From Vicinamibacterales bacterium (GTDB taxonomy: Bacteria; Acidobacteriota; Vicinamibacteria; Vicinamibacterales; UBA8438): DNA of 64,000 bases. A program made the position numbers and the translations under genes. Shown here in pieces: positions 1,105 through 54,831 of this stretch. How positions within the stretch are numbered: position 1 is the stretch's first letter; each line of letters starts with the position of its first letter. The stretch covers positions 1,551,907 to 1,615,906 of the forward strand of contig CBDHGC010000003.1 of the NCBI GenBank assembly GCA_965262925.1. The letters run 5' to 3'. Below the pieces are notes generated by a model, which searched no databases, had not been told where the DNA came from, and saw only the letters and a program-made list of their open reading frames with translations.

Positions 1105-3147
1105 TTGGGCCTGTTCCTGATCGGCACGTTACAGTCCGACGGCGACACCGTCGTCCTGGCGCAAGGGACGGAGGCGCCGGGGAACGCGGTCGCGGCGGGA
1201 GAGCTCCTGGTCGAGCCGCCGACGCTGATCAACCTCGGCTTCGAATGGACCATCGAGGGCGACGACAACCGCAACGCCGCGGTGGAGGTGGCCTATCGCA
1301 GGCGGGGCGAGACGGAGTGGTCGCCGGCGCTGCCCCTCCTGCGCCTCCAGGGCGAACGGATCTTCGTGGGCAACCAGTTCGACGTCGTCGTGCCGAACAT
1401 GTTCGCCGGCAGCATCCTCGACCTCGAGCCTGACACAGCGTACGAGGCGCGGTTCGTGATGACCGATCCCGATGGCGTCATCGGAGAGGCCGGCAGGACC
1501 GTGACGGTGCGGACGCGTGCCGAGCCGGTACCGTACGCGGAGGGGAGGGTGTTCCACGTCTATCCCCACGGCTTCGAGGGTGCGAAGATCGAGCCGTCGT
1601 TCGAGGGGTTGATATGTGCCTACAACTCCTCGTGCGGCGGCGGGGACTTCGCCACCGCGGGGCGTCCCCGGGTGCGCGCCGGGGACACCCTCCTCGTGCA
1701 CGCCGGCCTCTACCGCTACAACCACCTGGAGTACGGTGGAGCCAACCGAGCCTTCCCCTTCGAGGGCACCTACTACCTGACGGCCGACGGCACGCCCGAG
1801 CGGCCGATTGCGATCAAGGCGGCGGGTGACGGGGAGGTTGTCTTCGACGGCAACGGCAACTTCGCCCTCTTCAACGTCATGGCGGCCGACCACACCTACT
1901 TCGAGGGCATCACGTTCCGCAACACCGAGTTCGCCATCTGGGCCGGCCAGCAGTTCATCGCGGGGGCCAAGGGGCTCACGGTCAAACACTCCCGGTTCGA
2001 GGACGTCGGGGCCGGCGTCTTCACGAACTACTCCGGTTCGAGCAACTTCTATATCGCGGACAACCGGTTCCACGGCCGGAACGACCCGGAGCGCCTGATC
2101 GGATGGAGCGACGCGCCGCTGTGGGGGCGGTTCGACGGCGTCGACGGTCAGGTCCATCCCCCCGTCATGGCGTCCTACGTGGCGGTGAAGCTCTATGGCC
2201 CCGGACACGTCGTGGCCTACAACTACATCGCCGACTTCCATGACGGGATCAACGTCGAGACCTACGGGAATCCCGACGGCAGCGTCGCATCGGGAGCCGG
2301 AATGCCCGACGGTCCGAAGTACCCGCCGCGCGAGTACCGGGACCGGCGTCCCGTCGCGATCGACTTCTACAACAACATCATCACGAACTCCCACGACAAC
2401 CCGATCGAGACCGACGGGAGCCTGCACAACGTGCGCGTGCTCCGGAACCTGTTCATCAACCACCCGTCGCACGCGTTCTGCAGTCAACCCGTGCTCGGCG
2501 GGCCCGTCTACTGGATTCGGAACATCGGCTACAACCTCCCGGGCGGATCGAACCGCTTCTTCGGCGCCGCCGGCGTCATGTTCTACAACAACACCATCCT
2601 GTCCGAGACCACCGGGACCACGTCGAACACGCACTGGCGGAACAACCTGATTCTGGGGCAGAACGCGGCGCCCGACTTTAGGCGGCTGCGTCCGAACCTG
2701 TTCGGGATCACGACGTTCACCAACTACACCTCGTCGGATTACAACGGCTTCGGCCCCGCCCCGGACACCATGATGCCGTTTCGCTGGGAGAGCCCGCCGT
2801 TCGACGTGGCCGCCGACTTCCGCGCCCCGGATCACACCCCGGCGCTGGAGCTGCGGGAGTTCGCGACGCTGGAGGAATACAGTGCGGCGACCGGGCAGGA
2901 CCGGAACAGCGTGCAGGTGGGATACGACGTGTTCGTGAACGTCCCCGCGCTCGACGCCCGGGACGTGAGTGCGCTCCAGACGGTCTACGATGCGGACGAT
3001 CTCGATTTCCGCTTGCGGCCCGGCTCGGCCGCCGTGGACCGGGGGATGGTGCTGCCGACGGTGACCGACGGCTTCACCGGGAGCGCGCCCGACCTCGGAG
3101 CGCTGGAGGTCGGCGTCGCCGCGCCGCATTACGGGCCTCGCCCGTAG
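1105..3147 (+). CDS. right-handed parallel beta-helix repeat protein (pectate-lyase-fold-like), probably exported
   Basis: 680-aa ORF; the track start is TTG and the true start is uncertain. It has recurrent beta-helix turn motifs: FRNTEFAIWAG, VKHSRFEDVGAG, YIADNRFHGRND, FYNNIITNSHDNPIETDG, VLRNLFINH, FYNNTIL, WRNNLILG. The long antisense ORF 1129..3129 is a GC shadow. Confidence 0.75.
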   Translation: MGLFLIGTLQSDGDTVVLAQGTEAPGNAVAAGELLVEPPTLINLGFEWTIEGDDNRNAAVEVAYRRRGETEWSPALPLLRLQGERIFVGNQFDVVVPNMFAGSILDLEPDTAYEARFVMTDPDGVIGEAGRTVTVRTRAEPVPYAEGRVFHVYPHGFEGAKIEPSFEGLICAYNSSCGGGDFATAGRPRVRAGDTLLVHAGLYRYNHLEYGGANRAFPFEGTYYLTADGTPERPIAIKAAGDGEVVFDGNGNFALFNVMAADHTYFEGITFRNTEFAIWAGQQFIAGAKGLTVKHSRFEDVGAGVFTNYSGSSNFYIADNRFHGRNDPERLIGWSDAPLWGRFDGVDGQVHPPVMASYVAVKLYGPGHVVAYNYIADFHDGINVETYGNPDGSVASGAGMPDGPKYPPREYRDRRPVAIDFYNNIITNSHDNPIETDGSLHNVRVLRNLFINHPSHAFCSQPVLGGPVYWIRNIGYNLPGGSNRFFGAAGVMFYNNTILSETTGTTSNTHWRNNLILGQNAAPDFRRLRPNLFGITTFTNYTSSDYNGFGPAPDTMMPFRWESPPFDVAADFRAPDHTPALELREFATLEEYSAATGQDRNSVQVGYDVFVNVPALDARDVSALQTVYDADDLDFRLRPGSAAVDRGMVLPTVTDGFTGSAPDLGALEVGVAAPHYGPRP

Positions 3148-3191
3148 AGCTGACGCTCAGTGGGCTGTGCGGCGCGCAGTGACGGAGGACC

Positions 3192-3532
3192 TCACACGAG
3201 CTGGGACAGCAGCGTCCGAGCCGGGACCACGAGCGGCGGGCCCGGCGCCATGAAGCAGTCCGCGTCCACATGGTCGGCGTCCACCACGACGTGGAACGCG
3301 AACGGCGCGCCGACCTGCCGCTGATAGTGCGCAAGCGCCGGACTCGGTCTGGTTTCGCGAGCGTGTCGTACACCAGTTGGCGACCCGACCCGTACGCGTC
3401 CGCGTGACGCCGGCACGTGGTGGTCTTGCCGACCTGGCGCGGCCCGCTGACGAAGGCCATCTGCCGGTTGTTCGCGAAGTGGTCGACCAGCAGCGCGTCG
3501 TACACGCGATCCTGCGCCAGCATGCCGACCAT
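3192..3532 (-). pseudogene. internally deleted remnant of a DUF4143-type AAA ATPase
   Basis: One frame (ORF 3074..3532) gives an N-terminal piece with Walker A: MLAQDRVYDALLVDHFANNRQMAFVSGPRQVGKTT. A second frame (ORF 3192..3593) ends with a C-terminal-type piece: LAHYQRQVGAPFAFHVVVDADHVDADCFMAPGPPLVVPARTLLSQLV*. About 340 bp remain of a gene that is ~1.15 kb in the intact paralog 33194..34348. Confidence 0.6.
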
Positions 3533-5079: not shown

Positions 5080-5883
5080 GTGACCGAGGCGGATCCGGTC
5101 GATCGATTCCGAGAGCGGTATGCGCAATCTCCGGGCGAGGTCGCGCGGCGGGTCGAGCGCGCGGTCCTCGGGCACGCAGTCGGCCTGAACGGCTTCACGA
5201 CCGTTGCGCAGGCGGCGACACTTTGCGACGTCCTGCCGGTGACCGCCGGCGGTCGTCTCCTGGAAGTCGGTTGCGGTCACGGATGGCCGGGATTCCACGT
5301 CGCGCAGCGGCACGCGTGCAACCTCGTCGGTAGCGATATTCCACTGGACGCGCTGCGGGACGCACGATCGAATGTGAACGTGCGCCGGCTCGGCGCTCGC
5401 GCCGTGTTCGTCGCGGCGGACGGTCGCGCGTTGCCGTTTCGGTCCGCCGTCTTCGACGCCATCGTCCATGCGGATGCGTTCTGTTGAATCCCGGACAAGC
5501 TCTCCGTGTTGAGAGAATGCCACCGCGTCCTGAAGCCGGGAGGTCGCATCGCCGGCTACGTGATTCACACGCCGGCCGGCCTCGGTGCGGCCGACGAGCA
5601 GCGAGCCTGCGAGCTGGGACCCGACCAGGTGACCGGCGCCGCCCTGCCGGAAGACCTGACGCGGGAGGCCGGCTTCTCGCACATTGTCCGAGAGGACGTC
5701 ACCGGTCAGTTCAGGGCAACGGTCGAAGCGATGCTGCGTGCCGCGCGGCGGTGGGAGGGTGAGCTGCGCGCGGAGCAGGGCGACGAGCAGTATGCGGCCG
5801 GCTGCGAGCGAGGGGAGGCGAAACTGATCGGCATCCGGGAGGGTTTGCTCCTCCGGTCTCTGGTGACGGCGATCAAGCGCTGA
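5080..5883 (+). pseudogene. class I SAM-dependent methyltransferase interrupted by an in-frame TGA (5485-5487)
   Basis: ORFs 4996..5487 and 5506..5883 are in the same frame. Together they read ..LLEVGCGHGWPG (SAM motif I) ..FDAIVHADAFC*IPDKLSVLRECHRVLKPGGRIAGYV (post-I/II motifs). The likely start is GTG 5080, because the track start 4996 would overlap the divergent amidohydrolase start. Confidence 0.75.
5858..5877. repeat. 20-bp perfect direct repeat, copy 1 (CTCTGGTGACGGCGATCAAG)
   Basis: It is identical to 8586-8605. This copy lies inside the last codons of the methyltransferase (SLVTAIK). Confidence 0.95.
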
Positions 5884-5934
5884 GCCGGCTGTCCGGTCGG
5901 GGACCGACCGCTCGTCGGCGGGTGCCCACACCTG
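5871..5934. repeat. ~64-nt junction repeat, copy A (GATCAAGCGcTGAGC..GTCCGGTCGGGGACCGACCGCTCGTCGGCGGGT..)
   Basis: It aligns with 10785-10848 with about 7 mismatches over 64 nt. It contains the stop codon of the upstream ORF. It also contains a 7-bp stem / 3-nt loop hairpin: CGGTCGG-GGA-CCGACCG (5894-5910). Confidence 0.85.
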
Positions 5935-6035
5935 CCCGTGTTCATTGACGAATCACCCGGTCAACGAATACGATACCGGTGCGCGAAATGAGGCGCGGCA
6001 GAGACCAGGGGTGACGATGCGCGGCGGCATGCGCC

Positions 6036-8594
6036 TTGCGGCATTCCGCCGTACAGGTCGCTCTCCACGGGCAGCGCGGCGGCTTGGAAGCGCTTCATGT
6101 CGCCGGTCTCTGGGTGGTAGCCGTCGCGCAGCCGATCTTCGATCTCCTGAGCCGCAGCCCCGAATTCCTCGTAGCCCACGACACCCGGGCGACCGACCTG
6201 CCGGGCCTGTTGCTTGCCCTCTGCCTGGCCGGCCCCGCGTGCTGTCTGGCGGCCACTTGGCTGTGCCGCCGACTCGGCCCCCGCTCGCACGCGCTGGCCA
6301 TCGGGATGGTGATGGGCACGCTGGTCGCGACGGTGGCGCTCGCCACCATCAAGCAAGCCGAATGGAGCCGCGACGCCTCGTTCGGCCTCGCTACGGCCTG
6401 CGGCGCCCTGGCCGCCGGCGGCTACGTCTGGTCGTCGACCGTCCGCATGTTCGCCACGTTTCTCTCGCCGGCACTGGTGATTGTACCGGCGGTGTTCCTG
6501 CTGCATCCGGCAATTTCATCGTTCCTGTCGCCGTCGGAATCCGGACAGGCGCCGCTCGACGGCGTCACCTTCGACGAAACGCCGCCGGTCGTCGTGGTCG
6601 TGTTCGACCAGCTTCCGCTGGCGTCGCTGCTGAACCGCGCCGGTGAGATCGACCGAACGCTGTACCCTCACTTCGCCGCCCTGGCCGACGAGGCCACCTG
6701 GTTCCGCAACGCGAGCGCGGTCACCGAGATGACTACGTTCGCTCTGCCCGCCATCGTCACGGGAAACTATCCCACGCCCGGGCGAGTGCCGGTGGCGGCC
6801 GACTACCCGGCGAACCTCTTCACGTTGTTCGGCGCGCGCTACCGCCTGCAAGTCCACGAACCGCTGACCAATCTGTGTCCGGCGACGCTGTGCGGCCCGG
6901 ACCGCGCGGGCGCTATCGCCTGGCTCGTCCCGGTGTTGAGCGACCTCGCCGTCGTCTTCCTGCACCGGGTGCTGCCCGAAGCCGCCACCAGGTCGCTGCC
7001 GCCGGTGACGCAGAACTGGCGGGACTTCACCGCGCCCGATCCGTTCGTGGATCGCTGGGACAGCCTGCGGGTCCGCGGCCGGCGTGCGACCGCCGACGCG
7101 TTCATCGAGGCGTTGAGCGCGGGCGGCGAAGCCGTTCTCTACTTCGCGCACTTTCTGCTTCCGCACGAGCCGTGGCACTTCCTGCGGACGGGACAGCGGT
7201 TCTCCGCCGAGCGGTTCATGCTCGCCGGTCCCCGCGACGGAACATGGCCCGACCACGAGCGGGCGGTCGCCCTCAACTACCAGCGTCACCTGCTGCAGGT
7301 GCAGTTCGTGGACTCGCTGGTCGGTGCGATCGCAGCGCGGATGCGTGAGGTGGGGATCTGGGACGACGCGCTCGTCGTGGTCACGTCGGATCACGGCGTG
7401 ACCCTGCGACCCGGGTTCCCCTATCTCCGGCCGACCGCGGAGTCCTTTGCGGACATCGCGTCGGTGCCGCTTTTCATCAAGCGTCCCGTCCAGAGCCAGG
7501 GCGAGGTGACCGACGCGAACGTCCAGGTCATCGATATCCTCCCGACGCTGGCCGCCGAGGTGGGAGTGGATCTGCCGTGGAAGACCGACGGCATGAACCT
7601 GTTCGCCCCGGGGGTTGCCGATCGAACGGATAAGGTGATGTTCGTCGAACGCGGGCAGAGGCGCATGAACTTGCCGGGCAACCTGCAAGACGCGCTCATG
7701 GAAACCGTGGCCCGGAAGTTCGCCATCTTCCCAAGCGGCAACCCGCTGGATCAGCCGCGCCTGGAGCACTACGACGATCTGGTCGGAACGCCAGTCGGGA
7801 GGATCCGCGGGGAACAGCGGGCGAACCTGGACGTCATCGTGGACGCACCGTACCTGCTGGACGACGTCGAGCACAGCGCCGATGACGACGGCGACGCGGC
7901 TTGGGGAATGGTGAGGGGCTTCGTGCCAGCCCACTTGACCGGCCGCATTGTCCTGCCGGAAGACGGCTCGGCGACGCCGCCGCTCGCGGTCGCGCTCAAC
8001 GACATCGTGGCGGCGGTCACACTGGCGCATGACTTCAATGCCTCCGGACGGGAAGCGAGGTGGGAGGCGATAGTCGACCCGAGGCTCCTCCGGCCGGGCA
8101 CGAACAGGGTTGAGGTCTTCGCGGTTCGCGAGCGCCGCGACGGCACGTTCGAGCTCGAAGAGGCGTATCGCAGCGGCGCCGGCTGGCTGGAGACCACCGG
8201 GGTCAACCTCATTCCAGAGGAGACGGCAAGGCGGCTGAATGTGACCGTTTCCGGCTTTCATCTGACGGAGTCGTTGTCGAACGGCGATGGCCGCTGGACC
8301 GATGGCCGCGGGCGTCTCTCGGTGCGCATCGATCCCAGGGTTGCGCCGTCGGAGATGGCGATCAGCGTCCTGATGACGGGCGGCAGGGCGAAACGCCTGG
8401 AAGTGACCGTCAACGGTTGCCTGCTGTTCGACGGGACGGTTCGCGGATCCTGGGAGCAGACGTTTGCTCTGGACACCTGCGTGCTGGGCGTCGCGCCCAC
8501 GGTCGAAATCGAGTTGATCAGCCAACGGCACCGCCCGTCGACGATCGACGACCGCATGCTGGGCGTCGCCGTCGGTTCGATCGAGCTCTGGTGA
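6036..8594 (+). CDS. membrane-anchored sulfatase / alkaline-phosphatase-superfamily protein (LTA-synthase-like architecture)
   Basis: 852-aa ORF. The N-terminal part is hydrophobic (VAQPIFDLLSRSPEFLVAH..LLLALCLAGPA..MVMGTLVATVALA..ALVIVPAVFLL). A sulfatase-type core follows (PPVVVVVFDQLP..., LYFAHFLLPHEPW, ALVVVTSDHG, VPLFIK). The start is uncertain (track start is TTG; GTG near 6114 is possible). The last two codons and the stop lie inside repeat copy 2. Confidence 0.72.
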   Translation: MRHSAVQVALHGQRGGLEALHVAGLWVVAVAQPIFDLLSRSPEFLVAHDTRATDLPGLLLALCLAGPACCLAATWLCRRLGPRSHALAIGMVMGTLVATVALATIKQAEWSRDASFGLATACGALAAGGYVWSSTVRMFATFLSPALVIVPAVFLLHPAISSFLSPSESGQAPLDGVTFDETPPVVVVVFDQLPLASLLNRAGEIDRTLYPHFAALADEATWFRNASAVTEMTTFALPAIVTGNYPTPGRVPVAADYPANLFTLFGARYRLQVHEPLTNLCPATLCGPDRAGAIAWLVPVLSDLAVVFLHRVLPEAATRSLPPVTQNWRDFTAPDPFVDRWDSLRVRGRRATADAFIEALSAGGEAVLYFAHFLLPHEPWHFLRTGQRFSAERFMLAGPRDGTWPDHERAVALNYQRHLLQVQFVDSLVGAIAARMREVGIWDDALVVVTSDHGVTLRPGFPYLRPTAESFADIASVPLFIKRPVQSQGEVTDANVQVIDILPTLAAEVGVDLPWKTDGMNLFAPGVADRTDKVMFVERGQRRMNLPGNLQDALMETVARKFAIFPSGNPLDQPRLEHYDDLVGTPVGRIRGEQRANLDVIVDAPYLLDDVEHSADDDGDAAWGMVRGFVPAHLTGRIVLPEDGSATPPLAVALNDIVAAVTLAHDFNASGREARWEAIVDPRLLRPGTNRVEVFAVRERRDGTFELEEAYRSGAGWLETTGVNLIPEETARRLNVTVSGFHLTESLSNGDGRWTDGRGRLSVRIDPRVAPSEMAISVLMTGGRAKRLEVTVNGCLLFDGTVRGSWEQTFALDTCVLGVAPTVEIELISQRHRPSTIDDRMLGVAVGSIELW

Positions 8595-8605
8595 CGGCGA
8601 TCAAG
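8586..8605. repeat. 20-bp perfect direct repeat, copy 2
   Basis: It is identical to 5858-5877. It overlaps the ..ELW-TGA end of the sulfatase-like ORF. Confidence 0.95.
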
Positions 8606-8762
8606 AGAGAAACGTCCGCCGCAGGGACTGAATGAACGCGATGCCAGTGTGGGCCGACGTGCGTCCACATGAGTCGGCCGCGATATGGCGCGGCGCGATG
8701 CCCCCAGGCCCAGGCAGATCGTGGACAATACTCTTGTCCGCCAGCCCCTTGCGAATCGGTAG

Positions 8763-9977
<1,215 letters not shown>

Positions 9978-10008
9978 CGGACGGCTGGCGCAAGTCGAGG
10001 GCACTGCG

Positions 10009-10431: not shown

Positions 10432-10628
10432 TCGCGGGAGCGCTCCGCCTTGTAGTCGAACGTCGGATCCCATTCGAGCGTGTCGAACAGCTCGAGCAGG
10501 CGGCGTTGTTCCCGCCGCGCGATGAACTCCTGCAGCGCCAGGGTCACGGCCGCGGTCTTGGTTCTCTTTCCGCTGAGCTCCAGTGCGCGCTCCAGAAGGT
10601 CCGGGCTGATCGCCAGATTCGTTGCCAT
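10428..10628 (-). CDS. vapB: VapB-type antitoxin
   Basis: 66 aa, MATNLAISPDLLERALELSGKRTKTAAVTLALQEFIARREQRRLLELFDTLEWD... It is small, lies upstream of vapC and overlaps it by 4 nt. Confidence 0.8.
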   Translation of the reverse strand: MATNLAISPDLLERALELSGKRTKTAAVTLALQEFIARREQRRLLELFDTLEWDPTFDYKAERSRE

Positions 10629-10689
10629 GTGCAGAGTATCGCACAATTGGCCGCACAATGCCCGAAGGCCCGGCGGTCAATTGCTCAAC

Positions 10690-10797
10690 CCCTGGGTGCT
10701 CGCGGACGACATCTACGAGAACATCATCTATGACGGCGAGCCGTTTTCGACGCTGCCGCACGGCGCGCCCGATCTGCACGAGCGGATCAAGCGGTGA
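10690..10797 (+). pseudogene. mid-gene fragment of a second aminotransferase copy
   Basis: It translates [33 protein letters not shown]. The intact gene 8772..9977 has [34 protein letters not shown] at the matching position. Homology stops at ..CACGAGCGGATC, where junction repeat copy B begins and supplies KR-TGA. Confidence 0.8.
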
Positions 10798-10848
10798 GCA
10801 AGCTGTCCGGCCGGGGACCGACCGCTCGTCGGCGGGTACTCACGCCTG
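10785..10848. repeat. ~64-nt junction repeat, copy B
   Basis: GATCAAGCGGTGAGCAAGCTGTCCGGCCGGGGACCGACCGCTCGTCGGCGGGTACTCACGCCTG aligns with 5871-5934. Confidence 0.85.
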
Positions 10849-10878
10849 ATCGGCGGCGGTGATATCGACGCGGTCCTC

Positions 10879-11556
10879 GTGGCAGCGTGCCGGCGGAAGC
10901 GCTGGTTTACGATGTTGACGGCTTATGGCCCTGTGCGTTACCGTAAATGTCGACAAGGCATCGTGGAGACCTCATCCGCAACGAATCCCGATACCGACGG
11001 CGAGCGAACGCTCGACGAGGCGGCACTGCTGGCGCGCGTCATGCGGTACTTCGACGGCGCCATCCGTGGGTTGCGCAAGCGGGATCGAATGGTGATCCTT
11101 CGTGCGACGGACGATTTCTGGACCGTGATGGAAACGCTGTCGCTCGCCCCGGTCGCTGAATCCGCGGAATTCAAGGTGCGGTTGCGTGGCGCCCTGGCGA
11201 AGCGCAAGCTGCTGCAGATGGACGGCGGCGTGCTCTCACCGTCGAGCGCGGCGGCGCTGCTCGGGGTCAGCCGGCAGGCCGTCAGCCAGCGGCGCGCGGC
11301 CGGCAGGCTGCTCGGCGTCGAGGGGCCGCGCGGCTATCTCTACCCGGCGTGGCAGTTCACGGACCGGGGCCTGCTGCCCGGTTTCGAGGACACGCTCCGG
11401 GCGCTCCGCGGTGAGGATGCCTGGTGGATACTCACGTTCTTCCTCGAATCCGATGCGGCCACCGGGAACGAGCGGCCGCTCGACCTGCTGCGCATGGGCC
11501 GGCTGGACGCGGTGGCGCGAGCGGCCGAGCTGTACGGTGAGCAGGCAGCCGTCTGA
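10879..11556 (+). CDS. Xre-type HTH / DUF2384-like antitoxin of a RES toxin pair (long N-terminal extension)
   Basis: 225-aa ORF; the start is uncertain (ATG 10912 is possible). It has an HTH, LSPSSAAALLGVSRQAVSQRRAAGRLLG. The C-terminus is like RES-antitoxin binding domains: NERPLDLLRMGRLDAVARAAELYGEQ. It ends 5 nt before the RES gene. Confidence 0.72.
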   Translation: MAACRRKRWFTMLTAYGPVRYRKCRQGIVETSSATNPDTDGERTLDEAALLARVMRYFDGAIRGLRKRDRMVILRATDDFWTVMETLSLAPVAESAEFKVRLRGALAKRKLLQMDGGVLSPSSAAALLGVSRQAVSQRRAAGRLLGVEGPRGYLYPAWQFTDRGLLPGFEDTLRALRGEDAWWILTFFLESDAATGNERPLDLLRMGRLDAVARAAELYGEQAAV

Positions 11557-11561
11557 TCGCC

Positions 11562-12158
11562 ATGACAGCGCCCGGCGATCATCGGTTGCCGCCGCCGGGC
11601 GGTTACACCGGTGCGCTCGCCACGACGCGGATCCCGAAGGAACGGACCTGGTTTTGCCTGTACAGGCATCCGTACGCTCCCCTCCACTTCGGGACCACGC
11701 GAAGGGCGCGCTTCGACGCGGCGCGGGGCGAGTTCGGCGTGCTGTACGCGGCTCGGCAGATTGCCGGCGCATTCGTCGAGACGCTGGCCAGAGGCGGTGT
11801 CCGCACTATTTCCCAGAAGCGCCTGCAACGGTACCGCGTCGCCGAGATCGCCGCTTCGCGGGCTGTTTCCCTGGTGGACCTGACCGGCAGGGGCTTGGTG
11901 CGGATGGGCGTTGACGGCCGTCTGACCACGAGCGCGTACCAGATCGCCCAGCGCTGGTCGAGCGCGTTCTTCGCACATCGCGGTCGACCGGATGGAATCC
12001 TCTACGCGTCACGGCACGATCCCGGACAGCGACTTGCTGCCTTCTTCGACCGCCCGGCGCCATGCCTCACGGCCACGTTGCACGGTCCGTTGCGCAACTA
12101 TCTCGGCGATGACGCGTTCTTCCGCCTGCTGGACGATTACGACATCGGATTGCTGTGA
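11562..12158 (+). CDS. RES-domain toxin
   Basis: 198 aa with the R..E..S pattern: TRRARFDAARGEFGVLYAA, AFVETL, LYASRHDP. It sits immediately downstream of the Xre/DUF2384-like gene. Confidence 0.82.
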   Translation: MTAPGDHRLPPPGGYTGALATTRIPKERTWFCLYRHPYAPLHFGTTRRARFDAARGEFGVLYAARQIAGAFVETLARGGVRTISQKRLQRYRVAEIAASRAVSLVDLTGRGLVRMGVDGRLTTSAYQIAQRWSSAFFAHRGRPDGILYASRHDPGQRLAAFFDRPAPCLTATLHGPLRNYLGDDAFFRLLDDYDIGLL

Positions 12159-12178
12159 GGACCGGCCGCCGTACTAAC

Positions 12179-12334
12179 ATGCAGTTGTTCCAGACATCGG
12201 ACCACGTGGCCATCATGAACGAGATGATGCACACCGTCCGCGCCATTCCGCTCGACGGACGCCCGGCATTGGAACGGGAGAACGCTGCACGCGGATTCAG
12301 CCGCATGTGCGGCGCTCTCGGGCTGACGGACTAG
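12179..12334 (+). pseudogene. chimeric 51-codon ORF: fragment of the 'EYACHEGN' secreted-protein family fused to a copy of the aminotransferase 3' end
   Basis: MQLFQTSDHVAIMNEMMHTVRAIPLDGRPALE matches ..IVQTPDVIAIVQEHIHDVRFIHLDGRP.. of 12331..13389, but on the opposite strand. Separately, 12285-12329 (GCACGCGGATTCAGCCGCATGTGCGGCGCTCTCGGGCTGACGGA) duplicates 9937-9981 at the end of the intact aminotransferase. Confidence 0.7.
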
Positions 12335-13389
12335 CGGGCCTGGCTGCGCGCCTCCTCGGCACGCGAGCCGGCGAGGATGTTCGTCAGGCCGTAGTTGCCC
12401 TCGTGACAGGCATACTCGAACATCGGCTGGTCGCTGCGCGCCCACGGCGACGAGCCGGTCCACGGGCTCGTCCAGACGTTCGGATCGTCCACCGTGAACT
12501 GGTAGTCGAGCGTTCCCGGCCCCACGCGGGTGAACCGCTCGACGACCCGCAGGGCCGGGCTGAGATCCCAGTTGGTGCCGCCCTGCGGTCCGGGGCCGGA
12601 CGAAAACAGGTAGGCCCGGCTGCCGAAGTTGGTCGTCTCGACGACGAGCGTGTCGCCCTCCCAGCGCCCGCGCGAATGACCGCCGAACTGGCTGATGCCC
12701 GCGTCGATCGGGGGACGGCCGTCGAGGTGGATGAAGCGCACGTCGTGGATGTGCTCCTGCACGATGGCGATGACGTCCGGCGTCTGCACGATGTGGTAGT
12801 TGTTGTTGTAGGCGGTGGGCAGCGACGGGACGCCGCGATACCAGATGCACCGGTCGCCATAGTCGAACTGCTCGTGGGAGTCGGCCGGTACCAATCCTTC
12901 CCGGACCGCCTTCAACCGCTGCCGCTCCGGGGACGTGACGTGCGCTTCCGCCTCCGGGGTGAGCGCGGGCAGGCGCCCGTTGGGCGGGTCGATGACGAGC
13001 GAGGTGCGCCGCGTCGGGACGACGGTCGTCCCGCGATCGATCCAGAAGGCGTTGTAGGCGCCGACGTTGCCGCCCGCCGGCAGCGGCTCGGTGCGAACCG
13101 CGCTGGGCGCGTTAGCGCGGGCGTTGGCCTCGACCACGCGCTGCTCGATGGCCGCCGCTTCCTCCGCGGTCAGAAACGCCTGGTCGGCCAGCGCTTCCGG
13201 CCGTTCGAGCGGCGTCACGGTGGAGCTGTTCCAGACGCCCCCGATGTCGGGGGCGCCCCAGGGGGTCCGCGGCGCTGCCCAACCCTCCGGCGACGCCGGC
13301 TGGGACCACGCCGCCGTCGGCGCCAGAACCATGCTCGCGGCCAACACCAACGCGCCGAACCCGACCTGCACACGAGAAAGACGACTCAT
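12331..13389 (-). CDS. secreted protein of unknown function (family marked by FEYACHEGN motif), paralog 1
   Basis: Start at the internal ATG 13389, with AAGGAG upstream. Signal peptide MSRLSRVQVGFGALVLAASMVLAPTAAWSQ. Motifs shared with 13439..14437: RTSL(V/I)IDPPNGR(L/F)P, GDRCI, AYNNN, GRWEGDTLVVETT, FEYACHEGNYGL. Confidence 0.8.
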   Translation of the reverse strand: MSRLSRVQVGFGALVLAASMVLAPTAAWSQPASPEGWAAPRTPWGAPDIGGVWNSSTVTPLERPEALADQAFLTAEEAAAIEQRVVEANARANAPSAVRTEPLPAGGNVGAYNAFWIDRGTTVVPTRRTSLVIDPPNGRLPALTPEAEAHVTSPERQRLKAVREGLVPADSHEQFDYGDRCIWYRGVPSLPTAYNNNYHIVQTPDVIAIVQEHIHDVRFIHLDGRPPIDAGISQFGGHSRGRWEGDTLVVETTNFGSRAYLFSSGPGPQGGTNWDLSPALRVVERFTRVGPGTLDYQFTVDDPNVWTSPWTGSSPWARSDQPMFEYACHEGNYGLTNILAGSRAEEARSQAR

Positions 13390-13438
13390 CGCTGACTCCT
13401 TCGCTCGCGAGAGATTGTGCGGAACCGATGGGCGTGAT

Positions 13439-14437
13439 TCAGGGACGCAGCTCACGCCCCTCGCTCTCGAGTTTCCGCGCGCCGGCAAGAATGCCGTACA
13501 GGCCGATGTTGCCCTCGTGGCAGGCGTACTCGAAGATCGGGCCATCGGTACGCCGGAACGGCATCGAGACCGTGTAGGGGGCGGTGTACGTCGACGGGTC
13601 GGTCACGGTGTACTCGTAGGCGACGGTATCCGGATCGAGCCGGGTCAGCCGTTCGATCAGGTGCACGCTCGGGCCGATCCTCCCGTTGCCCCAATCACGG
13701 AACTGCGTGGTCTCGATGACCAGGGTCTCTCCCTCCCAGTGCCCGCGCGACACGCCGGCCAACTGCTCGAACCGCGGCTTCTCCGTGTCCTCGAGCGGGA
13801 CGATCCGCGCCTGGCGCGCCTGCTCGGTGAGAATTACGACGTGGTCGGCCGTCTGGAAGATCATCAGGTTGTTGTTGTACGCCCCGGGTCGGAGCGGCGG
13901 GCCCGACTTGCCGAACATGATGCAGCGGTCGCCCATGCTCCGGTTCTCGTAGGAGTCGTACATGTGCGCCCGCCGGTAGGCGGCGCGCTCCCGGCCTGCC
14001 TGCCGGGCCGCCTCGGTCTGCGGGGGGAACCGCCCGTTGGGGGGATCGATGATGAGCGACGTCCGCTTGTCCGAGGTCAGCTCGATGCCCCGCTCGTACC
14101 AGAACTCGTTGTAGGAGAGCACGCCCCCGGCGGCGCGCGACTGGTATCCCGCGTTCGGCGCCCCCGATTCGGGGTCGAAGAGATCGCGGTTCTGGCGCGT
14201 CCGTTCCGACGCCTCGAACGCCGCGGCCTGCTCCGCGCCCAGCGTCTCGATTCCCTCGAACTGGGCCGGCCGCTGCATCGGGGTCAGCGTGCGGAAGGTG
14301 AAGGTGCCGGAGATGTGCGGGTGCCCGTCGGGCGTTCGCATCGGCATGTCATCGGCCGACTGGGCCATGGCGGGCCCGACTGCGAACGTGAGCACGATCA
14401 CTACGCCCGCGAACGCCGCGAAGCTTGTCTTGCGCAT
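13439..14437 (-). CDS. secreted protein of unknown function (FEYACHEGN family), paralog 2
   Basis: 332 aa with signal MRKTSFAAFAGVVIVLTFAVGPAMAQ. It carries the same motif set as 12331..13389. Confidence 0.8.
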   Translation of the reverse strand: MRKTSFAAFAGVVIVLTFAVGPAMAQSADDMPMRTPDGHPHISGTFTFRTLTPMQRPAQFEGIETLGAEQAAAFEASERTRQNRDLFDPESGAPNAGYQSRAAGGVLSYNEFWYERGIELTSDKRTSLIIDPPNGRFPPQTEAARQAGRERAAYRRAHMYDSYENRSMGDRCIMFGKSGPPLRPGAYNNNLMIFQTADHVVILTEQARQARIVPLEDTEKPRFEQLAGVSRGHWEGETLVIETTQFRDWGNGRIGPSVHLIERLTRLDPDTVAYEYTVTDPSTYTAPYTVSMPFRRTDGPIFEYACHEGNIGLYGILAGARKLESEGRELRP

Positions 14438-21509: not shown

Positions 21510-21800
21510 TCAAGGCAGCGTGTAGGTCAGGAGCGTCTTGCCCGCCGCCACCGCGACGTACTGCTTGCCGTCCTTTCCCACGTAGGTGATCGGGTTGGCG
21601 CCGCTGATCATCTGCTCGGTCTCGACGCTCCACAGCTCGCGCCCGGTCTTCGTCTCGTAGGCGCGGAACCGTCGATCGCTGGCGCCCCCGATGAAGAGCA
21701 CGCGTCCCGCGGTGGAGGTCGGCCAGCCCTTCTGCGAGTTGGGGGCGCCGGTCAGCAGGCCGGGGGGTGCGCCCTCGACCGTGCCGAACGGGATCTGCCG
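21510..21800 (-). pseudogene. C-terminal fragment of a PQQ-dependent dehydrogenase
   Basis: ..AGRVLFIGGASDRRFRAYETKTGRELWSVETEQMISGANPITYVGKDGKQYVAVAAGKTLLTYTLP* parallels the last blade of 29884..31860 (GDLIFFGEDSGAFAALDAHSGEPLWHVQV..MTYMVGGRQYVAIAS..FALP*). No propeller body lies upstream. Confidence 0.7.
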
Positions 21801-21848
21801 GCCGCAGCGCTTCGCCACCGACGCGCTGATGGCGCGCGACGGGCATCC

Positions 21849-22107
21849 TACGAGCGGGCCGCCTTTAGCGGCAAGCGCATCGCCGTGGTAGGAGCCGGGC
21901 CCGCCGGGCTGGCCTGCGCCCATCGACTGGCGCTGAAGGGACACGCCGTTATCCTGTTCGATGCGCGCGCCAAGGCGGGGGGCCTCAACGAGTTCGGCAT
22001 CGCCAGCTACAAGACCGTCGACCGTTTAGCGGAGCGCGAGCTCGAGTGGCTCCTCGGCATCGGCGGCATCACCGTGGAGCTGGGGAGGCGCCTGGGCGAG
22101 GACCTGC
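21849..22107 (+). pseudogene. fragment of a PreT/GltD-like NAD(P)-flavoprotein (dinucleotide-binding segment only)
   Basis: YERAAFSGKRIAVVGAGPAGLACAHRLALKGHAVILFDARAKAGGLNEFGIASYKTV..LLGIGGITVELGRRLGEDL. The frame then switches abruptly at ~22105. Confidence 0.65.
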
Positions 22108-22440
22108 GAGGAGCAGGCCTGGCAGCGCATCCTGCGGCAGGTCGAGGACACCGGCGCCGACGGCGTCGAGCTGAACTTCGGCTGCCCCCACGGCATGCAG
22201 GAGCGCGGGATGGGCTCGGCGGTGGGCCAGGTGCCGGAGTACCTCGAGATGGTCACGCGCTGGGTGAAGGCGGCGACCCGGATGCCGGTCATCGTCAAGC
22301 TCACGCCGAACGTCGCCGACATCCGCTACGCGGCCCGCGCGTCCCGGGCGGGAGGCGCCGACGCGGTGAGCCTGATCAACACGGTGAACTCCATCGCGTC
22401 GGTCAACCTCGACACGTTCAGTCCCGAGCCCTCCATCGAC
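22108..22440 (+). pseudogene. fragment of a PreA/dihydroorotate-dehydrogenase-like TIM-barrel flavoprotein
   Basis: EEQAWQRILRQVEDTGADGVELNFGCPHGMQERGMGSAVGQVPEYLEMVTRWVKAATRMPVIVKLTPNVADIRYAARASRAGGADAVSLINTVNSIASVNLDTFSPEPSID. It is fused directly to the PreT-like fragment with both ends missing. Confidence 0.65.
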
Positions 22441-22556
22441 CGCTCGGCCGCCTGCCGAACTGCATCGGTGATGGCGTCAGCCTGTTCGGTCGTGAGCTTG
22501 GTGGCGACCAGTGCGCGAGCGATGGCGTCGGTGTCGAACCCAGAGGCATGGTACCA
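22441..22556 (-). pseudogene. 5' fragment of a DUF1640-like gene
   Basis: The minus strand translates ..GFDTDAIARALVATKLTTEQADAITDAVRQAAE. The intact paralog 48665..48916 begins MTTLAFDTHRAVKALRHAGFSDEQAEAVTEQIS. The fragment is truncated at 22441. Confidence 0.55.
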
Positions 22557-22633
22557 CGGTGTCTCACGCCGGCAGCACAGTCTGGCCCGTGGGATTCGTC
22601 AACGGTACGAGGGGGCCAGTGTAGGGGGCGGGA

Positions 22634-23433
22634 ATGGCGGACCTCACGAACACGGAGAAGCGGCAGTTTGAGCGATTACTTGGGATGGGCAGCGGCTACG
22701 TGCTCGACTTCTCAAACAGGACGTTTGCGGAGTTCGTGATCGATGCAACGGACCGCGACCCGTACGACGCCAAGTACGACCACGGCAGCTCAAAAGCAAA
22801 CCGGCTGCGTGGCTTTTGGGCGTCGAGCCGAACCGGGTAGTCGGCAAACTGATGGGTGAGATGCTTGAGTACTTGCGGACGACCGTCGGAGGCGACGAAG
22901 ATCCTACCCTGCGCGCGCAGTGCGAGCGGACGGTGGCGCGCCTGCTTCAAGAGAATCCCGTCCAGGAGCTTGACGCACTTGTCGCGATCGGGAACGAGCG
23001 CGACTTCGAGGTCGTGGCTAAAGCGGTCCGGGACGCCATCGACCGGGACGAACTCGAGGCGAGTCTCGACCGGCTGCACACCTTCATCATCAAGTATGTG
23101 CGGTTATTGTGTGAGACGCGGGGCATCTCCGTTGACCGCGACAAGCCGCTTCACAGCCTGTTCGGCGAGTACGTGAAGCACCTGAAGCAAGGCGGACATC
23201 TCGAATCCGAGATGACGGCGCGTATCCTGAAGTCGAGCATCTCGACACTGGAGGCGTTCAACGATGTCCGGAACAACCGGAGCCTCGCGCACGACAACCC
23301 GATCCTCGGCTATGAGGAGGCATTGCTGATCTTCAACCACATCGCAGCCTCAGTACGGTTCTTGCGGAGCATACATATGGCTACGCAGGAACGCGAGCAT
23401 GCTGCTACGGCTGACGACGATGTTCCATTTTGA
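22634..23433 (+). pseudogene. abortive-infection-type protein (N-terminal Abi-associated domain + Abi_C/HEPN-like C-terminus), single frameshift near 22815
   Basis: ORF 22634..22840 reads ..TEKRQFERLLGMGSGYVLDFSNRTFAEFV..SSKANRLRGFW. ORF 22816..23433 reads GVEPNRVVGKLMGEMLEYL... and later FNDVRNNRSLAHDN (an R-x4-6-H HEPN-type motif). The two join if one G is added to the GGG run at 22818-22820. G+C is visibly lower than in the neighbours. Confidence 0.7.
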
Positions 23434-23448
23434 TTTGGCTTATCCCGC

Positions 23449-23852
23449 TCAGATCGCCACCGGCGTCCCCTCGATCATCGGCATGTCGGGGATCGGAAGT
23501 GCCACTGCATGGCCAGCCGGTCGATGTTGTCCCGATTGATCTGGTCCAGCGGACTGTGGCGGTTCCCCGTGTAGCTGCCATGGTAGGACGGCCAGTCGAC
23601 GTACGGTTCGATCGCCGCCTCGCGGTAGGCGTCGCCCTCGCGGCGGAGCAGCACGATGTCGCCCCCGGACGTCCGGAACTGCGCGTCGAACCCGCCTTCG
23701 TTGAGGACGGTGCCTTTCGGCGCATCCCCCCGGAGAGCGGGATGGAGGCGGCGCGCGGGCGCGGCGCCCGCGGGTCGCTCGCCGCCGTCGGCGCCGCGGC
23801 GGCCAGTTCCCTGAGGGATACGACGCTGGTCGCCGCGAACGTCCTCTTGACA
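23449..23852 (-). pseudogene. N-terminal fragment of a cytochrome c-PQQ dehydrogenase paralog, truncated at both ends and frameshifted
   Basis: ..SLRELAAAAPTAASDPRAPRPRAASIPLSGG..GTVLNEGGFDAQFRTSGGDIVLLRREGDAYREAAIEPYVDWPSYHGSYTGNRHSPLDQINRDNIDRLAMQWHF / PIPDMPMIEGTPVAI* matches residues ~85-235 of 29884..31860. The upstream end abuts the IS1634-like element. Confidence 0.8.
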
Positions 23853-25829
23853 TCTAGACGGAAGTTTCAGAGCGAATCGCGCGGAAGTCATTCTCATTGA
23901 GTCAGTTAGCGATTCCGTCGGGGTGTCGGTGGTGGCTACACTCGGGTCGTTACCCCCAGTAGCTCGAAGCAGCGCTGCTGCAGCGGTGTGGGGTCCGTCT
24001 GCAACTGAAAGGTGACGCCGCTTTCGGCGACCTGCATCGTGTTCGCCGTCAGCGTTCCCAGGTCGGTGAGCAGCGTCCGGAAGCTGTGCACCGGCAAGTC
24101 GTCGTCGGTCCGTTTGCAGCCCACCTTGGCCAGGGCCGCCGGTGAGCGGCGAGCGGCGGCGACCACCGAAGGCCGCTGCTGCTCGGCCGCCGCCGGGTCG
24201 TGGTCGTCGAACAGCAGCGGCGCCAGCGCGTGGCGCATGTGCCACTCGACGTAGTAGGCCAGCATGCACAGCAGGACATGCGCCCGCACCCGGTCCGCCC
24301 GCCGGTGGTGGATCGGCCGCACCTTCAGGTCCACCGACTTCAGGCTCCGAAACGCCCGCTCCACCTTCGACAGGTCCTTGTAGGCCCGCACCGTCTGCGC
24401 TGCATCGAACTGCTCCGGCTCGACGTTGGAGCGGACGATGTACAGCCCGTCGAGCTGCTCCTCGGCCGCGATCTTGTCTTCGTCCCGGCGATAAGTGAAC
24501 GTGTCGTCGGTGATCGTGGTGACGAAATGCTTGGCCATCTTGTGCCGGTTGATCACCTTCCCGACGCGCATACCGATTTCGGCTGCTCCGCGTAGCAGCC
24601 GGTTCTGGCGCGTTGTCGCTGCCGCGATGGGCGCCAGGTCCTTCTCGGTTGCCGCCAGCAGTTCCTGCCGCTTGCGCTGCCGCTCGGCGGCCAGCAACGG
24701 ATTGCGGCACACGACCAGCCGCTCGCCGGGGAACAGCTCGCTGGTGACCTCGGCCAGGTCCCGCTCGTCGAACAGCGACGGCGTCACCGTGCCGGCGGCC
24801 AGCAGTTTCCGAATCGTCGGCGCCCGCAGCGTGGTGATCCAGCGCAGCCCGTCGACGCCCGCCAGGTCCTCGCGGATCCGCGCTGCGGTCAGCATGCCGC
24901 GGTCGCCCACCAGCACCACCCGCTGCAAGCCAAAGCGGGTGCGGAGCTTGTCCACCTGGCAGGCCACCGTCTTCGGGTCGCTCGTCGAGCCCTCGAAGAC
25001 CTCCACCGCGACCGGACAGCCCGCGGCCGTGCACAACAGGCCGAAGACGATCTGCAAGGTGCCCTGCTTGCCGTCGCGGCTGTGCCCGCGCTGCGCCAAC
25101 GGGCAGTGGGTCCCCTCCAGGTAGCTGGAGGTCAAGTCATAGAGCACCAGGGTGTGTTCCTGCAGGTGCTGCTTGGCCAGGCGTTGCTCGATGGCCGCCT
25201 GCCGCTCCACCAGCCAGTCCATCGCCGCATACAGTTCGTGCTGATCGACGTCGCCGAGCCCAAGCGTCTCGCCCAGGGTGGAGACGGCGCTCTCGGGGGC
25301 CAGGCCGCGCGCGGTGGCCAGCTTCGACTGCGCGTCGATGACGCGGGCGACGATCAGGGCGAGGACGAGGTCGCGGAGGCGACCGGCGTTACGGGCGATC
25401 AGCGTGTGCAGTCCGATCCGCTTGAGGGTGCCGAGCACCGCGGCGATGTGGCCGTGGGGCAGGCTGCGCACGCAGGTGAAGGCGTCTTCGGGGTTGACGA
25501 GTCGCTCACCGCGGAGGACGCGGCGCAGCGTTTCGATGGCGGCGGTCGGCAGCTTGGAGAGGTTGGCGAGGGTGCGCTTCTTGACGTGGCCGCCGGCGCG
25601 GTAGGACTCGCGCAGGAGGACGGCTGGGGGGGAGGAGCGATTGGGCACGCTCTCGATATACATGGTCACTAATTATACCGAAGTAACTCAATACATAAAA
25701 AGAAAACAACGCGCATTACGCGCCTATTACATGGCTACATATCGCCGTATGCACCAAGCCGAAAAGCTCCAAAAAGCCTTTAGACCCTATGGTTTAGGGC
25801 TAAATCGCCCGCTGAAACTTCCGTCTAGA
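23853..25829 (-). mobile_element. IS1634-family insertion sequence (1,977 bp)
   Basis: 18-bp perfect terminal inverted repeats: TCTAGACGGAAGTTTCAG at 23853-23870 and its complement at 25812-25829. It has a single transposase ORF and an AT-rich right interior (25670-25810). No flanking direct repeat is seen. Confidence 0.85.
23936..25669 (-). CDS. IS1634-family (IS4-superfamily DDE) transposase
   Basis: 577 aa: MTMYIESVPNRSSPPAVLLRESYRAGGHVKKRTLANLSKLP.., VLYDLTSSYLEG, VLVGDRGM, YKDLSKVERAFRSLKS. Confidence 0.88.
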   Translation of the reverse strand: MTMYIESVPNRSSPPAVLLRESYRAGGHVKKRTLANLSKLPTAAIETLRRVLRGERLVNPEDAFTCVRSLPHGHIAAVLGTLKRIGLHTLIARNAGRLRDLVLALIVARVIDAQSKLATARGLAPESAVSTLGETLGLGDVDQHELYAAMDWLVERQAAIEQRLAKQHLQEHTLVLYDLTSSYLEGTHCPLAQRGHSRDGKQGTLQIVFGLLCTAAGCPVAVEVFEGSTSDPKTVACQVDKLRTRFGLQRVVLVGDRGMLTAARIREDLAGVDGLRWITTLRAPTIRKLLAAGTVTPSLFDERDLAEVTSELFPGERLVVCRNPLLAAERQRKRQELLAATEKDLAPIAAATTRQNRLLRGAAEIGMRVGKVINRHKMAKHFVTTITDDTFTYRRDEDKIAAEEQLDGLYIVRSNVEPEQFDAAQTVRAYKDLSKVERAFRSLKSVDLKVRPIHHRRADRVRAHVLLCMLAYYVEWHMRHALAPLLFDDHDPAAAEQQRPSVVAAARRSPAALAKVGCKRTDDDLPVHSFRTLLTDLGTLTANTMQVAESGVTFQLQTDPTPLQQRCFELLGVTTRV

Positions 25830-31860: not shown

Positions 31861-31896
31861 GGGCTCCGTCATGATACGTTGAGGCCGGAGATGACG

Positions 31897-33087: not shown

Positions 33088-33193
33088 GCCGCTCTCGACG
33101 AACCGTCGCCGGTCGCGTTGTGCGGTCGCCGCGCGGACAGGTAGCGATGAAATCTCGGAGTCAGGCTCCGAAGTTTCGAGATAGACTGACCCT

Positions 33194-46887: not shown

Positions 46888-47138
46888 CGATTTCCCTTCC
46901 CGAGTTCCCCAACTCTTCACGAACCTGTTCCGGTCGCCCTCGTGCGATGCGGGCCGCGCGTGCAGGGCATCCCCTGACCACATCAGGAGACAGGATCCCG
47001 AACCCGGCGTCGGACGAGGAGCCCGAGCGGTCCGGGAGAGACGGCACTCACGCCCGGCGCACGTGCTCATGCAACTCGGGTGCGCGCCGGCTCGACGGCG
47101 GTCGCGACACGACGAACGAAATCAGCGGGTGGCGGGAA

Positions 47139-53880: not shown

Positions 53881-54831
53881 GGCGGTGCGGATCGGGTCTT
53901 GTGGGGACAGGAACGTGATCCCGCGATGCGCACCGTCAGGCCGACGCGCCCAGACTGACCCGTCAATCGACAGGGCTGTTGTCCGACGGCTCCGAGTCGT
54001 CGTCGATGAGCGATGGCGACAGCAGTTCGATTCGCCGAAAAGCTTCCTCGGACCCGAGTCCCCCGTAGCCGAGGACGTCATTGTTCCGAATCCGTTCGAT
54101 GATTCTTACAATCGAACTCGCACGTGCGGTTGCCGCATCGTCGCCGCTTTGCCGCGCTCTGTCGAGCTCTTTATATTTCGCAAGCAAGGGCGATGGCTCG
54201 ACGCCGAAGAGGTCCCGCCCCGGATTCTTGAGTTCCATGGCGGCCAGGATGATGACAGCCTCAAGGTGATGGTCGATCTGTGACCTCTCCGGTCTTGAAT
54301 TGCGGGATAGAAGAAACTCTATGGCCTCGCCGTCTTCGGCTTCTCCGCTCCTGAACCGTTCGTACAGGCCCAGATCGAGGGTTCGCATCACCAGCGCCAC
54401 CGTCGCAGCCAGGGCAAACGCATGCATGTCCTTTCGTAGCGAGGCGAACACCAGACCGAGCCGGTGGATGGACTGTGCAACTCGCCGAAGGCTGAGGTCG
54501 GAACCGACGAAGAGCGCCACCAGCCAATCTCTGACGCTCTCATAGTTGTTTCCCAATGTGCCTTTTTCGGGTGAGTTCCGAAAGTAATCCTCGATTCCCA
54601 CCCTCTGAAGGGCGGTCTCTATGAACGCGCCGCGCTCCGCTTCAGGCAGGCGGAAGTCGATGTCGAAGAATCGTCGCAGATATCCTTCAGCATCAAACCC
54701 GCTGCCGTATACGGCGCGAATGGAGTGGGCCAACTGGGAGCGATTGACGGCGAGAACAAACACAACTCCGTCCACAGAGAAGAAGTGTTTGGCTGTTTCG
54801 AGCAGCTCGACGGCGTAGGAAGGCCGGCATC

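Follow-up and report, generated by a model that had tools for sequence, protein, structure and literature searches.

The window analysed here, a 64,000-nt stretch of a Vicinamibacterales genome (assembly GCA_965262925.1, contig CBDHGC010000003.1, positions 1,551,907 to 1,615,906), contains a sulfatase-like gene that lies between two perfect copies of a 20-nt sequence, CTCTGGTGACGGCGATCAAG, the first of which is part of the end of a methyltransferase gene. An earlier reading made from the letters alone (the sequence-only reading) had placed these copies at 5858-5877 and 8586-8605 and had suggested that they are the left and right attachment sites (attL/attR) of a small integrative element. An exact-match scan of the whole window found the 20-mer at precisely these two places, both on the plus strand, and no third copy in the window with up to 3 mismatches allowed. 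The features around the repeat are as follows, with related loci being given by L numbers.

5080-5883, plus strand: M, a class I S-adenosylmethionine (SAM)-dependent methyltransferase gene (Pfam Methyltransf_25/11), with orthologs in L004, L005, L006-13, L016/18, L025, and L055
5858-5877, plus strand: copy 1 of the 20-mer, native M coding sequence for ..(S)LVTAIK
5884-5934, plus strand: X, native M-downstream sequence with GC-rich hairpins, which precedes Xre/RES in L016 and L018 and is partly deleted in L004
5935-8585, plus strand: S, the sulfatase-like gene block (Pfam Sulfatase), with an open reading frame (ORF) from the ATG at 6018 and its native tail missing
8586-8605, plus strand: copy 2 of the 20-mer, a junction piece made up of CTC TGG TGA, then CGGCGA, then TCAAG
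8601-8647, minus strand: 3' remnant of the toxin gene vapC2 (..GIAFIQSLRRTFLS, stop), located by tblastn with the PIN-domain protein of L025 (14/14 identity at 8604-8645)

The repeat is real and beyond chance. When the window was simulated 300 times with a fifth-order Markov model, each simulated window held on average 0.067 exact direct repeats of at least 20 nt at any distance and 0.007 with the copies within 3 kb of each other, and the apparently random exact repeats of the window itself fade at 17-19 nt, with the longer ones being paralogous or duplicated segments. Both copies are present in 11 assemblies (L025, L002, L043-L047, and L049-L052). L025 is the chromosome-level Vicinamibacterales metagenome-assembled genome (MAG) OZ244976.1, which has the same arrangement, and L002 is a contig of another sample that is 99.8% identical. 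L043-L052 are long-read plus short-read loci (six independently assembled contigs from six samples), among which L048 begins within the sulfatase gene and so holds copy 2 only. An assembly collapse or join artefact, to which we attach a negligible probability, is excluded because independent long-read/short-read assemblies of different samples and a chromosome-level MAG share the identical arrangement. The spacing of the copies is 2727 nt in every other assembly and one nucleotide more in the window, owing to an extra A at 6055. The sequence-only reading had named orthologous loci that always show this arrangement with a diverged repeat as grounds for abandoning its proposal. What we found is that all close relatives (at least 97% identical) keep the arrangement with both 20-mer copies perfect rather than diverged, and perfect copies at 2% divergence say little about constraint.

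Comparison with orthologs identifies copy 1 as the native, family-conserved 3' end of M. As had been read from the letters, it encodes ..SLVTAIK, which in the ORF at 5506-5883 is followed by an arginine and the stop. Orthologs and distant homologs alike keep the native end of M (..LLLRSLVTAIKR, stop). The C-terminus ..GIREGLLLRSLVTAIKR with its stop is kept in the orthologs and recognisable in homologs that are 32-52% identical over their full length, while ..LLLRSLVTA is conserved family-wide ahead of the final ..SLVTAIKR of M. At the nucleotide level, copy 1 is identical in L004, L016, L018, and L025, has 2 mismatches in L005 and L055, and has 5 in L006, the five mismatches belonging to the marine orthologs of M (78% identical). 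In all M orthologs compared, the last codon and the stop come directly after the 20-mer. Moreover, positions 5878-5934 are native M-downstream sequence, with a terminator-like hairpin at 5917-5936, and sulfatase-specific DNA first appears at 5935, 57 nt past copy 1.

The sequence-only reading took the 3' end of M for an occupied target, and its in-silico deletion of one copy plus the intervening DNA does give a methyltransferase that reads on as ..LVTAIKRETSAAGTE to a stop (ORF 8417-8635). Still, M is not an interrupted target, because its sulfatase-free relatives (L004, L016, L018, and L055) carry the same 20-mer followed by CGCTGA and X, not by AGAGAAACG. Here, M and X are followed by an Xre-like/RES toxin–antitoxin pair in L016 and L018, the pair is decayed in L004, and only the last 54 nt of RES come after X in L055. 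M forms the conserved left border of an island of variable content.

A separate observation on M concerns an in-frame TGA at 5485-5487 that is kept in every ortholog fetched (nucleotide identity 78-100%). In homologs that have cysteine at this place, the aligned residue is the second cysteine of a CC motif; M itself would read FCUIPDK here, and a conserved hairpin (CUCUC-CGUGUU-GAGAG) lies 15 nt downstream. Gene callers split M into two ORFs everywhere. M is probably a selenocysteine methyltransferase. Such enzymes are already known (PMC13188914), and M comes nowhere near the score cut-offs of any curated NCBIfam selenoprotein methyltransferase families.

On the other side of X, the S block brings 83 nt of its own upstream DNA, in which a promoter scan found a promoter-like site at 5945-5974. 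Its product belongs to a large family of proteins of about 850 aa from Vicinamibacterales and other Acidobacteriota, whose members end in ..ELRGxxxxxxR before the stop. All the aligned S homologs run 2-9 residues past ..SIEL (for example RGGADRQQR and stop), with the seven closer relatives running 5-9 residues past it. The S protein of the window and the listed members of its 90% cluster (15 of 47) all end in ..SIELW. By this comparison, S has lost its own last 5-9 codons at copy 2. Nucleotide homology of S to six ortholog loci (L001, L003, and L021-24; 76-83% identity) covers 6022/6085 to 8585/8587, and hence stops at the first bases of copy 2. These six loci represent five contexts that are unrelated to one another. 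Their homology does not extend beyond the ORF, and no S ortholog in these other contexts carries the 20-mer. The 2.7-kb segment that the sequence-only reading had proposed to search for elsewhere appears there only as the S coding sequence. Close S orthologs natively ending in ..GAGCTCTGGTGACGGCGATCAAG at other loci would point instead to coincidence or gene conversion. As for the origin of the block, a local relocation from beside a 680-aa gene, modelled on the neighbourhood of S in L001, was considered and dropped, the two 680-aa proteins being unrelated.

The sequence-only reading had also described the 5' end of this gene as uncertain and possibly truncated. The uncertainty is apparent in the window and arises because of the extra A at 6055 (CGTACAGGTC here, against CGTACGGTC in each of the other assemblies examined). 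This base throws the first 12 codons of S out of frame in the window only and is either a sequencing/assembly indel or a very recent mutation. In the other assemblies S is an intact ORF of 858 aa whose start is the ATG corresponding to 6018; the truncated end is the 3' one. Relative to L025, S has 20 synonymous and 16 non-synonymous codon differences, with a ratio of non-synonymous to synonymous substitution rates (dN/dS) of roughly 0.3, and the gene appears to be in use.

Copy 2 can be taken apart into a new end of S (CTC TGG), the TGA that stops it, a spacer of six bases, and the vapC2 stop codon plus two bases. The first two parts agree with the earlier statement that the sulfatase-like ORF takes its final codons and its TGA from this copy (it ends ..IELW, with the stop at 8592-8594). 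The last part belongs to a convergent PIN-domain toxin gene, whose stop codon is given by bases 16-18 of copy 2 (TCA, 8601-8603). In L025 this vapC2 is intact (141 aa) and lies with its antitoxin at 10584-11486, the partner being an upstream ORF of about 160 aa that is taken as the antitoxin. In the window, only 47 nt with the last 14 codons are kept, followed by a 42-nt filler (8648-8689) where L025 has 950 bp (10631-11580), and no ectopic source was found for this filler or for the junction spacers. As a side observation, when judged against L025, the vapBC2 of the window is a toxin–antitoxin module caught while being lost.

The breakpoint at copy 2 coincides with both the end of ortholog homology and the truncation of S. 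Moreover, short identities exist on either side, in that TCAAG is common to the M tail and the vapC2 end, and CT..GG is shared with ortholog S tails. Of the bases of copy 2, only these may be native to its flanks (CT..GG to S, TCAAG to vapC2), and for the 9-12 bases between them we found no source except the M tail. From these alignments, copy 2 marks the junction of S and vapC2, supplying no more than a new stop codon after ..ELW, and is best described as a 15-20-nt ectopic piece of the M end lying between a relocated S gene and the vapC2 stop. Two other descriptions were tried and rejected. Copy 2 as a frame-shifted native S tail ('GDGDQER' against 'RGDPDTRQR'), or as homologous in frame to the L001 tail, gave no consistent DNA alignment with five ortholog tails, and an apparent match downstream, AGAGAGAAACG, is really the vapC2 3' end.

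That both copies might be native to their own genes and alike by pure coincidence is a reading we consider very improbable. It can draw on the Joint Genome Institute (JGI) metagenome contigs, in which the 20-mer has 7 hits, 5 of them in unrelated genes by chance and the other 2 in M tails followed by CGCTGA-X-Xre-RES; in addition, many windows were presumably screened, and a 19-mer chance repeat exists in the window. Against coincidence stand the low number of such repeats expected within 3 kb, the position of copy 2 exactly where S homology ends and the protein is truncated, and the 9-12 nt left unexplained when at most CTC..GG and TCAAG are granted to the flanks.

Genomic islands of tyrosine recombinases integrate into gene 3' ends and are flanked by direct repeats, attL and attR. 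The locus is like them in having a direct repeat of which one copy is an intact gene 3' end and which brackets DNA absent from relatives, yet it differs in lacking an integrase, an abutment on the left, an attB in relatives, an intact cargo, and any excision polymorphism. Under an att or dedicated cassette-site explanation, a recombinase acting in trans would have put the 2.7-kb S segment into the M 3' end, with the 20-mer as identity block. This would be favoured by a perfect direct repeat that is far beyond chance and brackets a single-gene segment, by S orthologs in unrelated contexts elsewhere (twice next to toxin–antitoxin-like genes), and by a GATCAAG motif shared by three junctions. However, the identity block does not abut insert DNA on the left, where copy 1 is separated from S-specific DNA by native sequence and the M end is native, not reconstituted. 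On the right, the flank of copy 2 is a vapC end and the cargo gene is truncated by the joint, and the relatives without the segment (L004, L016, L018, and L055) are without an attB joint. The empty site predicted by the sequence-only reading is likewise missing, as none of the 7 JGI hits continues with ..GATCAAGAGAGAAACG.

Pfam scans found no tyrosine or serine recombinase among the 42 ORFs of the window, and its only mobile-element genes encode two DDE transposases, one at 23936-25669 (18 kb away) and the other at 60096-61571 (54 kb away). The absence of transposase, integrase, and terminal inverted repeats noted earlier holds for 5878-8585, in which no inverted repeat pairs both ends and no transposase is encoded, and 20 nt exceeds the usual target duplication of an insertion sequence (IS) or transposon. 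No excised or empty variant occurs among the 11 two-copy assemblies or the listed cluster members (15 of 47). Under the att explanation, which we regard as quite improbable, excision would join ..GGCGATCAAG to AGAGAAACG with M sequence upstream, and a circle would join 8585 to 5878. The sequence-only reading had also allowed for a microhomology-mediated capture, and that wording, and not the att half, comes close to the evidence. More generally, a perfect direct repeat bracketing a single gene can resemble an att site yet be a scar, and the comparisons that decide are whether a copy is a native gene end, whether the repeat abuts foreign DNA, and what relatives have.

Integron features were looked for as well. 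The window has no integrase and no RYYYAAC/GTTRRRY cores visible at the boundaries, no dedicated attC model having been run, and an integron attC or a structured RNA at the boundaries gained no support: Rfam gave no hits in the window and the boundary sequences fold no better than shuffles.

The region from M to the genes D, which begin at 12331 on the minus strand and form the right end of the island, continues in the window beyond vapC2 with the following features.

8772-9977, plus strand: AT, a complete class I/II aminotransferase gene (Pfam Aminotran_1_2), 89% identical to the AT of L004 and 97% to that of L025
10009-10658, minus strand: VapC1 (PIN)/VapB1 toxin–antitoxin pair (Pfam PIN, VapB_antitoxin), 92% identical to L004 4427-4865
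10693-10788, plus strand: a1, an orphan mid-gene fragment (96 nt) of a second, diverged AT, 88% identical to 9369-9464
10785-10848, plus strand: diverged second copy of the M tail (GATCAAGCGGTGA) and X', then native Xre/RES, collinear with L018 9705-10488 at 90%
10879-12158, plus strand: Xre-like antitoxin and RES-domain toxin (Pfam RES), the ancestral neighbour of M, with the order M-X-Xre-RES in L016 and L018
12285-12331, plus strand: a2, an orphan 3'-end fragment (47 nt) of a diverged AT, joined to the downstream genes at CGGAC

This island differs in every relative examined, and five arrangements were seen.

L016 and L018: M-X-Xre-RES-(Fic remnant)
L055: M-X-RES remnant-Fic toxin–antitoxin
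L004: M-X (partly deleted)-Xre (decayed)-Fic toxin–antitoxin-VapBC1-PagL-NHL-hydrolase-AT-DUF2283-D
L025: M-X-S-20mer-vapBC2-AT-(Fic-antitoxin fragments)-DUF2283-D
Window: M-X-S-20mer-vapC2 remnant-AT-VapBC1-AT fragment joined to M tail-X'-Xre-RES-AT tail fragment-D

Its content is that of a type II toxin–antitoxin island, with VapBC and RES in the window, vapBC2 in L025, and Fic/VapB/DUF2283 in L004 and L055. Like other hypervariable islands of this type (VapBC, RES-Xre, Fic, and DUF2283), it has conserved border genes and variable content dominated by toxin–antitoxin modules and their remnants, and differs from them in also holding a housekeeping-like S-family enzyme and AT (one intact copy and two fragments). 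Gene fragments with 3-7-nt microhomologies at their joints abound in the island, and RES, vapC2, and Fic-antitoxin remnants occur as well. Thus, a1 is fused in frame at ATC to the M-tail codons IKR and stop, the stretch 5871-5934 is 89% identical to 10785-10848 (X' itself being 10798-10848), and L025 12882-13032 matches pieces of the Fic-antitoxin region of L004. Moreover, the AT 3' end recurs as a perfect 26-mer (9957-9982 and 12306-12331) bracketing a 2.35-kb block, which comprises VapBC1, the AT fragment, the diverged M tail with X', and Xre/RES and is absent from L025 and L004. Identity of the window to L025 is a mosaic as well, being mostly 90.7-92% in the left flank (the exception is a 193-nt AAA-ATPase remnant at 98%), 98% across M-X-S, and 97% in AT and D, a pattern that we take to show allelic exchange between lineages.

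The last 7 nt of copy 2 (8599-8605) and the first 7 nt of the diverged M-tail/X' copy (10785-10791) are both GATCAAG. Joined at this motif, copy 2 and the X' copy would make up a single unit of 77 nt with 91% identity to 5858-5934. The idea that they are halves of one M-tail/X unit split by a 2.2-kb insertion is attractive for this reason, but L025 has copy 2 without X' and its AT in the ancestral right-hand context; the presence in L025 of copy 2 with no X' argues that the two GATCAAG junctions may have arisen independently. A tandem duplication from the M tail to mid-AT was rejected; it accounts for VapBC1, the AT fragment, the M tail, X', and Xre/RES following in that order, but not the intact upstream AT or the 8-12% divergence of the copies. 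Selection against disruption of M would concentrate breakpoints near the M stop codon. An integron-like platform in Vicinamibacterales, with the M 3' end centred on GATCAAG as a genuine site at which some recombinase acting in trans exchanges single genes or toxin–antitoxin modules as cassettes, seems to us far-fetched. Equally hard to credit is the corresponding picture of the junctions at 5871, 8599, and 10785 as recombinant sites, with M or the AT fragment as left arm and X or vapC2 as right arm.

With these comparisons in hand, the 20-mer is probably a scar without function, left by illegitimate (microhomology-mediated) recombination within a toxin–antitoxin island of hypervariable content. 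How the events followed one another and which enzymology was at work we infer, and among the possible paths we tentatively favour one of two recombination steps, a vapC2-M joint and then an unequal crossover. First, there would have been an earlier allele in which vapBC2 abutted the M tail, joined at the shared TCAAG; this precursor would have the M tail fused to vapC2 (..GGCGATCAAGAGAGAAACG) without a sulfatase gene. An M-X-sulfatase allele would then have recombined with it by an unequal, microhomology-guided crossover between the S tail (..GAGCT.CGG) and the M tail (..GGTCTCTGG), by which the S tail would be cut off and 20 nt of the M end duplicated. Homologous exchange of alleles between related lineages could then have spread the arrangement.

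Several points weigh against this account. The precursor allele with the M tail fused to vapC2 was not found in the JGI contigs scanned by DNA; 20 nt is long for a microhomology joint, and a duplication or templated step must be assumed; the GATCAAG shared by the end of copy 2 and the start of the X' copy is left to chance; and the microhomology on the S side is judged only from orthologs that are 79-83% identical.

Among known processes, the favoured scar resembles homology-facilitated illegitimate recombination (HFIR), reportedly described by de Vries and Wackernagel in 2002. In both, microhomologies of 2-7 nt join the foreign or relocated DNA, a conserved gene anchors one side, the joints truncate genes and come with small recipient duplications or deletions, and no dedicated recombinase is involved. 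They differ in that the duplicated 20-nt piece is longer here than the usual joint, and in that the host here is an uncultured Vicinamibacterales known from sequence alone.

A second known process, SPDIR (short-patch double illegitimate recombination), inserts patches of 3 to ~100 bp from intragenomic donors at microhomologies (bioRxiv 10.1101/2023.11.22.568220), and suggests a different route to copy 2 within the same general class as the favoured path; a template switch would be another form of it. By this route, S and vapBC2 would already have been neighbours, and a 12-20-nt single-stranded copy of the M tail would have annealed at CT..GG and TCAAG and replaced the S tail and the spacer during replication. 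The patch is within the reported size range, the M tail as donor is on the same strand at a distance of 2.7 kb, the 20-mer overlaps at both edges with sequence possibly belonging to the flanking genes, and other short ectopic fragments occur in the island (again L025 12882-13032 against the L004 Fic-antitoxin region). As SPDIR microindels are outlined in that preprint, copy 2 is like them in being a short patch that matches an ectopic locus of its own genome exactly and is bounded by microhomology, and unlike them in sitting at the joint of two blocks of different origin, which classic SPDIR does not need. However, no close relative with the pre-event sequence, from which the replaced length and the microhomologies could be read, was found, SPDIR is experimentally extremely rare (at most ~1e-12 per locus in wild type; bioRxiv 10.1101/2023.11.22.568220), and a1 and a2 are 8-12% diverged from the resident gene, which makes them remnants or imports, not local templated copies. 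We therefore consider a templated patch unlikely, if less so than an att site or coincidence.

Returning to the scar that we prefer, no new mechanism is required for it. Scars and variable toxin–antitoxin islands are well known, and the present locus is a further instance of them, not a new kind. It serves as a clear natural example of toxin–antitoxin island remodelling in a soil acidobacterium that is uncultured: microhomology joints and the exchange of alleles among lineages reshape the island, with ordinary enzyme genes carried along.

Some minor observations concern the right end of the island and the remainder of the window. A fragment at 12172-12284, called as a 51-aa ORF in other assemblies, resembles the D-family genes (12331-14437; L005 6162-7280) and is fused in frame to the AT tail fragment. 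In L044 and L045, two other assemblies of the same population, the D region adjoins sequence which in the window is found ~41 kb off, beside a DDE transposase (L044 10983-13206 matches window 54823-55643), a joint that indicates strain-level rearrangement. To the left of M, an AAA_14/DUF4143-type ATPase remnant (3074-3532, minus strand) lies between a 680-aa gene and an amidohydrolase gene; it is absent in L004, longer in L025, and has a full-length paralog at 33194-34348. Further downstream, paralog fragments of a pyrroloquinoline quinone (PQQ)-dehydrogenase (21510-21944) and a dihydroorotate-dehydrogenase fragment (22195-22671) adjoin the DDE_Tnp_1 transposase at 23936-25669. Here, 23453-23823 is 76-93% identical to 31232-31604 in the intact paralog, and the whole looks like an IS-disrupted duplicate (21510-25669 and 29884-33210). 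Lastly, two triplet-periodic repeat clusters (GTCGTC/GTGGTC/CTCTTC on the plus strand) occur at 45138-45863 within a TonB-dependent receptor gene (44398-47070, minus strand), where they would encode a low-complexity stretch rich in Asp, His, and Glu.

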